In this document: positions 26,571 through 34,857 of the stretch, piece by piece
Layout: the number at the start of each line of letters is the position of its first letter
How positions within the stretch are numbered: position 1 is the first letter of the stretch
NCBI GenBank assembly: GCA_038251965.1
Contig: JBBSAV010000001.1
Coordinates: 28,627-92,626, forward strand
Direction: 5' to 3'
Length of the DNA stretch: 64,000 nt
Source: Candidatus Limnocylindrales bacterium
Lineage (GTDB): Bacteria > Chloroflexota > Limnocylindria > Limnocylindrales > CSP1-4
Translations under genes and position numbers: made by a program
Notes under the pieces: model-generated
The model's input: only the letters and a program-made list of their open reading frames with translations
What the model was told of the DNA's origin: nothing
The model's database searches: none

Positions 26571-27640
26571 CCTTCGTCCTCATCCTCGCCCCACAGCAGC
26601 ATCGCCTGAGTGCGATGGATCTCCGACGAGAATAGCGCCCCCACCGACTCACCCCGATGGATGCGCGTGATGGCTTCACCGATGAGCGGTGCCACCGAGA
26701 GTACCTTGAGCTTGTCGAGTCGCTGTTTGGCCGGCTGCGGGATGGTGTCGGTGATGACCACCTCTTGCAGGGCTGACTCGCGGATTCGATCGATGGCTGG
26801 GTCGGACAGCACGCCGTGCGTGGCGCAGCCGTAGATCTCCAGGGCGCCCTCGCGCTCCAGCGCCTTGCTCGTCTCGATGATGGTGCCGCCGGTGTCGATC
26901 TCGTCATCCACGATGATGGCGCGTTTGCCGCGCACGTCGCCGATGACGTTCACCACCTGCGCACGGTCGTCGTTGCCCTCGCGCCGCTTCTCGATGATGG
27001 CCATCGGCGCCCCCACCAGCTCGGCGAACGTGCGGGCGCGCTTGGCGAAACCGAGGTCCGTGACCACCACGATGTTCTGGAGTTCCTTCTGCTTCCAGTA
27101 GTTCGACAGCAGGTGCGTGGCAGTGAGCTCATCGACGGGGATGTTGAAGAAGCCCTGGATCTGGCCCTGGTGGAGGTCCATGGTCAGTAGTCGGTCGGCC
27201 CCGGCCACGCTGATCATGTCGGCGATGAGGCGCGCCGTGATAGGCACCCTGGGCTGATCCTTCTTGTCCGAGCGGCCGTAGGAGTAGTACGGCACCACCG
27301 CGGTGATGCGCCCGGCGCTGGCACGCTTGAAGGCGTCGATCATGATGAGCAGCTCCATGATCGACTTCTGCACCGGCTTGCAGGTGGGCTGGATCAGGAA
27401 GATGTCCTTCTCGCGGACGTTGTCGACGATGCGCACGAAGATGTTCTCGTTGGCGAACTCGAACACCTCTGAGCGTCCCAGGTCCACGTCCAGATAGCGT
27501 CCGATCTTACGCGCCAGCTTGGGGTTGGCGTTGCCGCAATAGAGGCCCAAGGCCTCGTTGGGCCGCTTCTCCTCCGTGTCGCCGAAGGCCGTCACACCCC
27601 GGCTCCCGCCTGATCCGTCATGCCTGTGCCGCTCCATCAT
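26567..27640 (-). CDS. prs: ribose-phosphate pyrophosphokinase
   Basis: [12 protein letters not shown]..., PRPP-binding loop [10 protein letters not shown]. Start uncertain: candidates are ATG 27640/27637 or GTG 27595. The longest ORF to 27757 overlaps gyrA. Confidence 0.9.
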
Positions 27641-30200
27641 CGCCGGGTCCATCTTCTCCCGGTCCATCATCGTCGGACCCGTCCTCGACATTCTCGCCGA
27701 CGCCGCGCTGTTCCGCCAAGCCCTCGCGGAAGACCGCGATCCCAGCCACCGTGTCACCCGCGTTGAGGCGCATCACGATGACACCACGCGCGGCACTGCC
27801 GTAGCGGTTGATCGATTGCACGTCGGTGCGCACGACCTGGCCGCTCGATGAGATGAGCAGCAGCTCTTCGTCGGTCTCGTCGACGAGCTCGACCGAGGCC
27901 ACCGTGCCACTCTTGGCACCCTCGAGCGAGATCAGTCTCACGCCTTGGCCGCCGCGGTGCTTGGAGCGGAACTCGCTACTGGCCACGCGCTTGCCGTAGC
28001 CCGTCTCGGTCAGCACCAGGATGTCATTGCCCTCGTTGATCACGCCCATGCCCACGACGCGGTCACCCTTGCGGGCGAGGCGGATGCCGATGACGCCGGC
28101 GGCGTCACGGCCCATGGCACGGACCTCTGTCTCGTTGAAGCGCGCGATGCGCCCCATGGCCGTGGCTAGCAGGATGTCATCACTACCCGAGGAGACCTCC
28201 ACCCAGGCCAGCTTGTCGTCGTCGGCGACGGTGATGGCGCGGATGCCCGTGGCGCGAACGCGCTCGAACTTCTCGATGGCGGTCTTCTTGACGATGCCGT
28301 TGACGGTGGCCATGACGAGGTTGTGGCCGGGCTCGAAGTCGGGCAAGGTGATCACAGCCAGCACTCGCTCACCCGATTCCACTTGCACGCCCTCAAGGTT
28401 GATGATGGGCATGCCCTTGGCCTGTCGGCTGGCGTCCGGGATAGCGTGGACCTTGGAGCTGAAGACGCGTCCGCGGTCGGTGAAGAAGAGGGCCCAGTCG
28501 TGGGTGCTGGCCACGATCAGGTGGCCAACGGCGTCCTCTTCCACGGTGCGGGCACCGATGATGCCCTTGCCACCGCGAGCCTGACGCCGGTACGTCACCA
28601 GCGGCTGGCGCTTGATGTAGCCACGCCGGCTGACCGTGACGACGACGTCCTCGTCGGCGATGAGATCGTCGTCGCTGAGCTCCTTGTCAGCACTGCCCTC
28701 GATCCTGGTGCGGCGGTCCTGCCCGTACTTGACGTCCAGCTCGCCCAGCTCGTCGCGGATGATCTGCAGCACCCGCTTGGGATTGGCGAGGATATCCTCC
28801 AGCTCGGCGATGCGTTGGATGATGGCGGCGTACTCGTCCTCGATCTTCTGCCGCTCCAGCGCCGCCAGGCGGCGCAGCTGCATCTCCAGGATGGCATTGG
28901 CCTGGATCTCGGAGAGACTGAAACGCGATATCAGGTTCCCGCGAGCCGTCTCCACGTCAGCCGATTCGCGGATGGTGGCGATCACGGCGTCGAGGTTGTC
29001 GAGCGCGGTCTTCAGGCCCTCCAGGATGTGCGCGCGGTCCTTGGCCTTCTGCAGGTCGAACTCGGTGCGCCGGCGAACGACCTCTCGTCGCCATTCGATG
29101 TGGTGGTGCAGGAGCTGCTTGAGCGAAAGGGTCTGGGGCTGGCCGTCCACCAGCGCCACCACGTTGGCGTTGAAGGCCATCTTCAGCGCGGTGTGCTTGA
29201 AGAGGTTGTTGAGCACCTTGCGCGGCGCCGCATCCTTCTTGCACTCGATGACGATGCGCATGCCGTCGCGGTCCGATTCGTCGCGCAGGTCGGCTATGCC
29301 ATCGACCTTGCCGGTCTTGACCAGGTCGGCGATCTTCTCCAGCAGCGTGGACTTGTTGACCTGGTAGGGGATGGCGGTGGCCACGATGGCGGTGCGGCCC
29401 GCACGGGTCTCCTCGAACGCCACCTGCGCCTGCATCACGACACGGCCGCGACCGTGGCGATACATCTCACGGATGGCGTCGATCTCTTCCCACTCGCCGG
29501 TCACCGGGTTGCGTCGACGGTCGTAGCGGAAGATAGTCCCGCCCGTCGGAAGGTCAGGACCGAGCAGGTGCTCACACAGCTGGTCGGTGTTCATCTCGGG
29601 GTCGTCGATGAGCGCCTGCGTGGCGCGGACCACCTCACCCAGGTTGTGCGGCGGGATGTTGGTGGCCATGCCCACAGCGATGCCGGTCGATCCGTTGATG
29701 AGCAGGTTGGGCAGCTTGGCCGGTAGCACCGACGGCTGCATGCGGGTGCCGTCGTAGTTCTCGACGAACTCGACGGTGTCCTTGTCGATATCCGACAGGA
29801 CCTCCGCCGCGATGGGCGTCATGCGGGCTTCGGTGTATCGCATGGCCGCCGCTGGGTCGCCGTCCACCGAGCCGAAGTTCCCTTGCCCGTCGATGAGCGG
29901 GAAGCGCAGCGAGAACTCCTGCGCCAGGCGCACCAGCGCGTCGTAGATGGCCTGGTCGCCATGGGGATGGTACTTGCCCATGACATCACCGACGATGGCG
30001 GCGCACTTGCGGTATGAGGCGCTCGAGGAGAGCCCCATCTCACTCATCGTATACAGGATGCGGCGATGGACCGGCTTCAGTCCGTCACGCACATCGGGTA
30101 GGGCGCGGCTGACGATCACGCTCATGGCGTAATCGAGATAGGCCGACTTCAGCTCCTCCTCGATAGGGACCGAGCGGACGTTTCCGACTGGGTCGGTCAT
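27618..30200 (-). CDS. gyrA: DNA gyrase subunit A (acidic Gly/Asp C-terminal tail)
   Basis: Catalytic Tyr region and GyrA-box beta-pinwheel repeats; ATGA overlap with the upstream gene. Confidence 0.95.
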
Positions 30201-34012: not shown

Positions 34013-34014
34013 GT

Positions 34015-34857
34015 TCAGCCTCCCTCCCCTTGCTGGTCCACGCGCGGACCGTGGTACCGACCTTGTGCTCCTCTTAATGACTCCCCAGCCTCCTGTCCGC
34101 TCCGTTGCAGCAGTTCCTCCGCAACGGCCTGATACGCGAGGGCACCGCGTGAGCCGGGGCTGTACGCTGCGATCGACTGGCCATAGCTTGGCGCCTCGGC
34201 GAGGCGCACACTCCTTGGCACCACCGTATCGAAGACCTGTTGGCCTAGGTGCCGGCGCACTTCGGCCGTGACATCAGCCGCCAGGCTGGTCCGTCCATCA
34301 TGCATGGTGAGCACCACGCCCTTCAACGTCAGGCGTGGGTTCAGGTGGTCGCGGATGAGTTCCACCGTGGCCATGAGCTGCCCCAGTCCCTCGAGTGCGT
34401 AGTACTCACACTGCAGGGGGATCAACACGCCGTCAGCCGCGGTGAGCGCATTCACGGTGAGCAGCCCAAGTGACGGCGGACAGTCCAGGAGCACGAAGTC
34501 GTAGGCATCCCCGGGTCCGTTCAACGCCTGCTTCAAGCGTCGCTCGCGACCGGCGCTGGGCACCAGCTCCACCTCAGCACCTGCCAGGCCGCGGTGCGAC
34601 GGCAGGACGTCAAGGTGATCGATGTCGGTGGGTGTGACCGCCTCTCCGAGGCTGGTTTCTCCAAGGAGAACGTCGTAGACGGAGACTTGCAACGCTTCCT
34701 TGTCGATGCCGAGGCCACTCGTCGCATTGCCTTGCGGGTCCATGTCGACCAGCAGGACGCGCTTCCCGTCCAACGCCAAGTACGCAGCCAAGCTGACCAC
34801 GGTCGTGGTCTTCCCGACTCCGCCCTTCTGGTTGGCACAGGCGATGATCTCGCCCAC
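34015..34857 (-). CDS. parA: chromosome partitioning ATPase ParA/Soj (with ~30-aa C-terminal tail)
   Basis: Deviant Walker A KGGVGKTTT. Confidence 0.9.
   Translation of the reverse strand: MGEIIACANQKGGVGKTTTVVSLAAYLALDGKRVLLVDMDPQGNATSGLGIDKEALQVSVYDVLLGETSLGEAVTPTDIDHLDVLPSHRGLAGAEVELVPSAGRERRLKQALNGPGDAYDFVLLDCPPSLGLLTVNALTAADGVLIPLQCEYYALEGLGQLMATVELIRDHLNPRLTLKGVVLTMHDGRTSLAADVTAEVRRHLGQQVFDTVVPRSVRLAEAPSYGQSIAAYSPGSRGALAYQAVAEELLQRSGQEAGESLRGAQGRYHGPRVDQQGEGG

Follow-up and report, generated by a model that had tools for sequence, protein, structure and literature searches.

A conserved parAB-gyrBA gene block beside the parS sites of Limnocylindria and its probable transcription from one main promoter

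Introduction

How is DNA gyrase expressed when its genes follow not dnaA, dnaN and recF but a chromosome partition operon? The question is raised by a 64,000-nucleotide (nt) stretch of DNA of Candidatus Limnocylindrales, from a genome of ~66% G+C (contig JBBSAV010000001.1 of assembly GCA_038251965.1, positions 28,627 to 92,626 of the forward strand; hereafter the window), in which the partition genes parA and parB are followed on one strand by gyrB, by an additional gene that we call X, and by gyrA, with two centromere (parS) sites upstream of parA. Limnocylindria (Chloroflexota) is an uncultured lineage of soil and freshwater that is abundant in the environment. Chromosomal parABS systems of the soj-spo0J type usually have the gene order rsmG-parA-parB and lie near the origin of replication, oriC.

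In a survey of gyrase gene positions, every sampled bacterium with gyrB beside oriC had dnaA, dnaN or recF immediately upstream of gyrB (PMC8359277). It has been argued that co-oriented transcription from upstream feeds relaxation into the gyrB promoter, and that gyrase gene position and upstream transcription matter for supercoiling homeostasis (PMC8359277). Limnocylindria is an exception to this survey, because parAB takes the upstream place.

An original prediction, made from the sequence of the window, held that parA-parB-gyrB-X-gyrA is a block of five genes whose co-transcription and coupled translation are obligate. We arrive at a broader and less strict reading. The conserved block is parS-parS-promoter-parA-parB-gyrB-slot-gyrA-prs-orf88, where the slot is the position between gyrB and gyrA, and it is probably served by one main promoter and transcribed into a polycistronic mRNA, with X as a passenger. 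The parAB-gyrBA order is apparently an unreported, lineage-wide variant of origin-region gene order, all parts of which belong to known families.

Gene content and junctions of the block

Open reading frames (ORFs) of the window were listed and translated, and Pfam and NCBIfam profiles then gave the gene identities (Table 1), which confirmed that the five genes stand on one strand in the order predicted. In ParA the deviant Walker A motif, of the form KGGxGK[ST], reads KGGVGKT and stands at residue 11. ParB carries the CTP-binding motif GERRWR at residue 83, of the form GERRxR, and scores below the cutoff of the Noc model (225 vs 315). GyrB contains the EGDSAGG motif, while GyrA has the active-site motif AAMRYTE at residue 118, the GyrA-box QARGGKG at residue 540 and six DNA_gyraseA_C repeats. 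With the parE models (against GyrB) and the parC models (against GyrA) both below their cutoffs, the two proteins are subunits of gyrase and not of topoisomerase IV.

The junctions read exactly as had been claimed. The TGA stop of parA is separated from the parB ATG by 'ac', a gap of 2 nt; parB and gyrB share ATGA (4 nt), gyrB and X overlap by the 8 nt ATGTCTGA, and X and gyrA again share ATGA (4 nt). The limit of five genes was however drawn too narrowly, as prs most likely starts after a gap of 22 nt from the gyrA stop (27618), behind the Shine-Dalgarno (SD) sequence GGGAG, and itself overlaps the next gene, orf88, by ATGA. The spacings from parA to orf88 are thus +2, -4, -8, -4, +22 and -4 nt, and the tight co-directional unit is one of seven genes, 34857..26304. 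The protein of orf88 gave no Pfam match; in L001 and L002, the two relatives that we fetched via homologues of X, ORFs of 92 and 89 amino acids (aa) occupy the corresponding position. Beyond it the convergent secA ends at 26272.

How unusual is such a run of junctions? A spacing of ≤2 nt is found in five of the six pairs in the block and in 8 of the 36 other co-directional pairs of the window (22%). The run of overlaps is therefore enriched but not extraordinary, because tight junctions are common in this compact genome.

Table 1. Features of the parAB-gyrBA locus and of the dnaA region (window coordinates).
Feature	Coordinates	Strand	Description
parA, partition ATPase	34857..34015	-	280 aa, GTG start; Pfam AAA_31 4e-65, CbiA 2e-29
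parB, centromere-binding protein	34012..33128	-	294 aa; Pfam ParB_N, HTH_ParB and ParB_C all above cutoff
gyrB, DNA gyrase subunit B	33131..31173	-	652 aa from ATG; TIGR01059 937.3 vs cutoff 882.4
X, AlkD-type HEAT-like-repeat glycosylase homologue	31180..30197	-	327 aa; Pfam PF08713 'DNA alkylation repair enzyme' above cutoff
gyrA, DNA gyrase subunit A	30200..27618	-	860 aa; TIGR01063 1090 vs cutoff 877
prs, ribose-phosphate pyrophosphokinase	27595..26567	-	likely GTG start; Pfam Pribosyltran_N, Pribosyl_synth
orf88	26570..26304	-	88 aa, C-terminal hydrophobic segment; G+C at third codon positions (GC3) 0.91; last co-directional gene
-10-like hexamer TAGAAT	34897..34892	-	40 nt upstream of parA GTG; proposed block promoter
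Palindrome GGTGCATCGAAGCACC	34914..34929	-	just upstream of the -10-like hexamer, in the -35 zone
Proximal parS TGTTCCACGTGAAACA	35143..35158		~300 nt upstream of parA start; perfect consensus match; aligns with parS in L001 and L002
Distal parS TGTTCCACGTGAAACA	35271..35286		~430 nt upstream of parA start; perfect consensus match
dnaA	11672..9936	-	Pfam
dnaN	9132..8011	-	Pfam
recF	7979..6813	-	Pfam

Conservation across Limnocylindria and other Chloroflexota

A comparison of synteny, which had been proposed as a check, was made with L001, L002 and 80 further loci fetched via GyrB, one genome per species, all annotated by tblastn with the window's own proteins as queries. Twenty loci (L001-L019 and L065) form a Limnocylindria-type set with GyrB 56-89% identical to that of the window, and the records of X homologues are labelled 'Candidatus Limnocylindrales/Limnocylindria bacterium'. 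In all twenty the order rodA-pbp2-mreD, then divergently parA-parB-gyrB-...-gyrA-prs, recurs as far as each contig reaches, and prs follows gyrA in every relative whose contig extends there.

The objection that the parB-gyrB junction could be an artefact of assembly or binning has a starting point in the window's origin in a metagenome-assembled contig, the exact X protein being on record on a 102-kb contig. The junction is nevertheless present in all 18 related loci that cover it, and the loci of conserved order come from many independent projects and assemblers, on contigs of up to 1.47 Mb. Recurrence in independent assemblies rules out an artefact, and we regard its probability as negligible.

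Junction spacings in the relatives were obtained by picking starts by homology and then reading the junction sequences directly. The parA/parB spacing is ≤2 nt in 18 of 18 loci showing this junction. At parB/gyrB, 14 of the 20 loci have an RTGA overlap (ATGA or GTGA); a GGAGG that lies inside parB, 6-7 nt before the gyrB start, is conserved, as is the N-terminus of GyrB (M/V-T-D/E). The remaining six have gaps of 3-26 nt. Spacing between X and gyrA ranges in the relatives from -4 to +166 nt.

What is special to the lineage has to be stated with care. The original prediction stressed that gyrBA is uncoupled from recF and ~20 kb away from it, and both are true of the window, but the uncoupling is not special: in 13 other loci labelled Chloroflexota (Dehalococcoidia, Ktedonobacterales, Anaerolineales and others) gyrB adjoins neither recF, parB nor gyrA. 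As other sampled Chloroflexota also have gyrB without recF, the lineage-specific part is the fusion of parAB to gyrB together with the re-joining of gyrB and gyrA. The arrangement is a real but modest rearrangement of ordinary housekeeping genes.

Some records in the comparison need comment in their own right. L014 (labelled 'Verrucomicrobiia', GyrB 73% identical) and L006 ('Anaerolineaceae') carry the Limnocylindria-type block; wrong binning or labelling of the source records is the probable cause. Within the block the gyrA or parB frame is broken or truncated, or extra sequence is present, in L001 (10987-11516), L002 (7908-8036), L006 (2793-4083) and L010 (14850-16065), most likely through frameshifts or assembly errors. 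L006 has an insertion between X and gyrA.

parS sites, promoter and transcription of the block

As had been predicted, two parS sites lie upstream of parA. Both are 16-bp palindromes that fit the consensus TGTTNCACGTGAAACA perfectly, and they are the sole parS matches in the window, where 0.01 would be expected by chance. Among 19 loci, 18 have one or two parS-like sites (≤2 mismatches) 40-430 nt upstream of parA.

A scan with the two-hexamer sigma-70 consensus gave no promoter between 26 and 36 kb of the window, and the -10-like element surfaced only when loci were compared. The hexamer TAGAAT, TAAAAT or TACAAT occupies position -40 or -41 of parA in 15 of 19 loci, often as TGnTAGAAT, and three further loci have TAGACT at that same position. 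We scanned the coding strand of 13 loci for TATAAT (at least 5 of 6 positions), beginning 120 nt before parA and ending 1 kb beyond the start of prs. The parA hexamer is the only such match in 10 of the 13, the other three being without any, and between parA and gyrA there is no further match in any of the 13. No terminator-like site was found on the minus strand from 26000 to 36000; the terminator scan gave three matches, all of them on the plus strand and fewer than expected from shuffling. Rfam gave nothing in the block, in the long parA leader or in the intergenic region.

The genes of the block thus share a strand, short or negative spacings and freedom from intrinsic terminators, as expected of an operon, and their co-transcription is likely. 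We propose that one main promoter, with TAGAAT 40 nt before parA, would give a polycistronic mRNA reaching at least to gyrA and probably through prs and orf88. That co-transcription would be obligate, as originally predicted, is an overstatement, although the conserved -10, the lack of another strong -10 and the lack of a minus-strand terminator agree with the rest of that claim.

Several points weigh against this reading. The rules for promoters in Chloroflexota are poorly known, so that weak or non-sigma-70 promoters inside parB or gyrB are possible. The gyrase genes of all bacteria studied have supercoiling-sensitive promoters of their own (PMC8359277). Tight junctions are not universal in the relatives and are found in 22% of the window's other co-directional pairs, and each start in the block has its own SD-like sequence. 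Finally, L017 and L019, and only these, have a second -10-like hexamer just before prs, which suggests that the 3' extent of the transcript may differ between clades.

Some of these points favour an alternative in which gyrase is driven mainly by one or more relaxation-responsive promoters of its own, in the 3' part of parB and possibly in X, and in which the overlaps are a by-product of genome compaction. It would fit the gyrA and gyrB promoters known so far, which are autonomous and stimulated by relaxation (PMC8359277), as well as the frequency of overlapping or closely spaced genes outside the block (8 of 36 pairs), the SD-like sequence at every start and the small positive parB-gyrB gaps of 6 of the 20 relatives. 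It does not sit well with 13 loci in which no -10-like hexamer of at least 5/6 was found on the coding strand between the parA promoter and gyrA, with a parA-upstream hexamer that holds its position across the lineage, or with a conserved parB-gyrB junction whose SD lies inside parB. We regard it as unlikely, and we prefer a single main promoter in front of parA.

The surroundings of this putative promoter raise the further question of whether it is regulated. The window, L001 and L002, which are the three closest genomes, all keep the palindrome just upstream of the hexamer, as GGTGC-N6-GCAC(C/T), and it may serve as an operator or belong to the promoter itself. The hexamer of the window is preceded by the parS sites at distances of ~245 and ~375 nt, and in the deep-branching L017, L019 and L065 a parS lies within ~40-50 nt of the -10-like hexamer or inside the leader. 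ParB would load at parS just upstream of the promoter, and we propose that the head of the operon is then the centromere of the chromosome, with the promoter and the block inside the zone over which ParB would be expected to spread. A bolder extension is that the centromere doubles as a control region for gyrase, ParB at parS beside the sole promoter of the block tuning parAB and gyrBA jointly. We consider this doubtful. If true, supercoiling capacity would be set by the state of the segregation complex, and upstream transcription of parAB would replace dnaA-dnaN-recF as the co-oriented 'relaxation input' to gyrB.

On the other side of the intergenic region, GAGTATAGCCGAG at 35460-35475, ~85 nt upstream of mreD, is conserved and aligns in L001 and L002. 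TATACT, which occurs within its reverse complement, would be a -10-like element of the divergent mreD-pbp2-rodA operon.

Translational coupling

An SD-like match precedes every start in the block, with duplexes of -5.8 to -12.5 kcal/mol against a generic anti-SD. The strongest by the same generic measure, -12.5 kcal/mol, is that of the parB ATG, which stands behind GGGAGGGAGG; the SD of gyrA is GAGGAG. Ribosomes could pass from gene to gene over the stop/start overlaps or very short gaps, with SDs situated inside the preceding genes, and we propose that GyrB and GyrA would in this way be made from one message together with ParA and ParB. With an SD-like sequence of its own at every start, reinitiation or coupling is possible but not required. 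The obligate coupling of the original prediction was therefore put too strongly, a view that the gaps in relatives and the extra genes between gyrB and gyrA also support.

X and the gyrB-gyrA slot

The gene between gyrB and gyrA had been left unnamed, and can be identified as an AlkD-type glycosylase from its PF08713 match and from aligned catalytic residues. A search of the PDB with the single X sequence gave no meaningful match, and the profile of the X family gave only a marginal local match to AlkD (E = 0.11). Because these sequence-level searches were unconvincing, a fold search was needed. The AlphaFold2 model of X, built from 30 homologues, has a mean predicted confidence (pLDDT) of 91.8 and shows the predicted α-α superhelix of HEAT-like repeats (HLR) that is characteristic of AlkD.

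We compared X with an AlkD reference sequence identical to PDB 3bvs_A; the sequence identity of X to AlkD and its HLR relatives is only 12-14%. The catalytic residues of AlkD are Trp109, Asp113 and Trp187 (PMC8626424). A local hhalign profile alignment pairs W227 of X with W187 of AlkD, while a global profile alignment, of low overall probability, pairs W141, D145 and W227 with W109, D113 and W187, the pairing of W141 and D145 resting on a W-x-x-V-D motif shared at the start of the equivalent helix. All three residues are invariant in the 30 X homologues. X is ~90 residues longer than AlkD (327 vs 237 aa), with one more helix at the N-terminus and a long, conserved one at the C-terminus, and its place between gyrB and gyrA is fixed. 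X is best read as an AlkD-type glycosylase with extra terminal helices and predicted activity, related to the AlkD of Bacillus cereus and to the HLR superfamily (AlkC, AlkD2, AlkF, EF3068, YtkR2) by PF08713 and the aligned catalytic residues.

Does the position of X then imply a role in gyrase function? The slot holds X alone in the window and L001-L006, a 4HBT thioesterase and X in L007-L015, a DUF4287 protein and a thioesterase without X in L017, and DUF4287 alone in L019. X would accordingly be seen as a passenger, a repair enzyme in a slot whose content differs between sister clades, and it is probably cargo and not a gyrase cofactor, because the slot is variable.

The contrary case, that X is a gyrase-associated HEAT-repeat DNA-binding factor and not a repair glycosylase, its placement reflecting a physical or functional partnership, draws on several features. 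Wherever X is present (16 loci: the window and L001-L015) it lies between gyrB and gyrA, despite identities of 44-66%, both of its ends overlap gyrase genes in the window, and its additional helices are foreign to AlkD; moreover, the HLR proteins AlkF and AlkD2 have, according to the titles of their PDB entries, no substrate motif or an affinity for branched DNA. Yet the three catalytic residues of AlkD have aligned counterparts in X that do not vary within its family, the presence of a thioesterase or DUF4287, with or without X, gives the slot the look of a cargo site, and L017-L019 have gyrase without a neighbouring X. Because the catalytic triad is conserved and the slot variable, we hold such a cofactor role to be very unlikely, and X to be passenger cargo. 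It should be added that the invariant C-terminal residues of X overlap the SD and the start codon of gyrA, so part of the conservation of X may be at the nucleotide level.

Relation to known arrangements

The canonical cluster, dnaA-dnaN-recF-gyrB(-gyrA), of Firmicutes, Actinobacteria and many further phyla resembles the locus described here in having gyrB and gyrA on one strand and in that order, in the Limnocylindrales case within ~26 kb of dnaA/dnaN, and in having co-oriented genes directly upstream of gyrB. Among our loci, 24 from other phyla have recF directly upstream of gyrB in the textbook manner, recF-gyrB(-gyrA). The differences are that parA-parB takes this upstream place, recF being followed instead by an unrelated ORF of 706 aa, and that an extra gene separates gyrB from gyrA.

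As a chromosomal parABS system the locus is typical in its ParA with deviant Walker A motif, its ParB with three domains and GERRxR, its consensus 16-bp parS and its proximity to the origin. It departs from the type in three respects: no rsmG or mnmG was found in the window (no MnmG or RsmG domain in ~50 scanned ORFs, as the original prediction had stated), parS is upstream of parA by the promoter with no match in or downstream of parB, and the operon runs on into the gyrase genes. Centromere repeats directly upstream of a partition promoter are also known from plasmid operons of the parMRC/parFGH type, in which the centromere is the operator. Here however the parS sites of the window are ~245 and ~375 nt from the hexamer, and autoregulation is at most putative. 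ParB belongs to the chromosomal HTH type, and among the genes of the operon are essential ones that are not concerned with partition.

The closest arrangement outside the lineage is that of two Clostridia metagenome-assembled genomes, an Oscillospiraceae/Clostridiales pair (L020, 10001-14281, and L069, 10001-13807), with the order dnaA-dnaN-recF-gyrB-parA-parB. In these gyrB directly adjoins parAB on the same strand and parS lies between gyrB and parA, but gyrB precedes parAB, recF keeps its place upstream of gyrB, and gyrA is not a neighbour. Their adjacency of gyrB and parAB looks like an independent event.

Our literature search found no paper describing a parB-gyrB or parAB-gyrBA operon. 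The term 'parB-gyrB' in the Halomonadaceae literature was considered and set aside, being the mere name of a chromosome segment, and the Limnocylindria genomics paper makes no mention of gyrase, ParB, synteny or operons.

A whole lineage has thus swapped the dnaA/dnaN/recF neighbourhood of gyrB for a partition operon and a centromere. This provides a natural test case for whether gyrase expression can run from a promoter that is not its own, and for whether ParB/parS influences gyrase. The overlap of the parB stop with the gyrB start is a simple synteny marker for the lineage, and a conserved AlkD-type glycosylase subfamily is flagged. The value of the locus is comparative rather than conceptual, because all of its genes serve ordinary housekeeping and none of the results establishes a new mechanism.

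Position of the block relative to the origin of replication

The block is within ~26 kb of dnaA/dnaN; dnaA-dnaN-recF lies ~16-28 kb from it, with recF ~20 kb from gyrA. The window has the usual divergent layout of rnpA-yidD-yidC-jag and dnaA-dnaN-recF. The spacer between dnaA and dnaN (9133-9935) is 800 bp long and has an AT-rich run at ~9150-9210, beside dnaN, and several degenerate DnaA-box-like sequences. A small plus-strand ORF with a TrkA_C domain (9590-9928) also lies inside this spacer. Should oriC be at dnaA/dnaN, the ~19 kb that runs from smpB to parA (smpB, ftsEX, prfB, prs, gyrA, gyrB and parAB, mostly essential genes) would be transcribed head-on to replication. An inversion of 15900-34900 would bring back a canonical jag ... 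parA-parB order directed away from the origin; it would have to be old, since the lineage as a whole conserves the mreD-parA junction.

The head-on orientation that the whole block would then have is one argument for placing the origin elsewhere, in the mreD-parA intergenic region with its parS and DnaA-box-like sequences, whence parAB-gyrBA would be transcribed outwards and co-directionally with replication. Two of the window's three matches to TTATCCACA (≤1 mismatch) fall in this region, at 34933 and 35076, and genes point away from it over ~19 kb to one side and ~20 kb to the other. The boxes are however no more numerous than chance would give, and 11 of 13 related loci lack them in this region, for which reasons this origin was rejected as the main reading. 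Moreover the region has no AT-rich stretch, whereas the dnaA-dnaN spacer has one in addition to its box-like sequences, and a regression of GC skew at third codon positions (GC3 skew) shows no sign change at 35.2 kb, nor at 9.3 kb. An origin beside parS is thus quite improbable.

Skew gives little help in this matter. The coarse GC-skew profile falls almost steadily across the window, and in the per-gene regression of GC3 skew the coding-strand term dominates (-0.15), while the term for replication stays small and negative throughout. Its sign does not change at 9.3, 12.3 or 35.2 kb, and the regression is uninformative for origin placement.

Three further features of the window may be recorded. 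Directly downstream of recF, in what is the place of gyrB in many bacteria, the 706-aa ORF (4339-6459, minus strand) has a strong coding signal, with a GC3 of 0.84, and no Pfam match. A 632-aa ORF (55883-57781, minus strand) between the ATP synthase operon and mreB likewise has no Pfam match and is unusual in composition, with G+C of 0.81 at first (GC1) and 0.74 at third codon positions. A transfer-messenger RNA (tmRNA) gene, the sole Rfam match of the window (15494-15869, minus strand; tag peptide GNNRQPALALAA), adjoins smpB (15939-16400, minus strand), and this pair marks the point at which the jag-side genes and the minus-strand segment converge.

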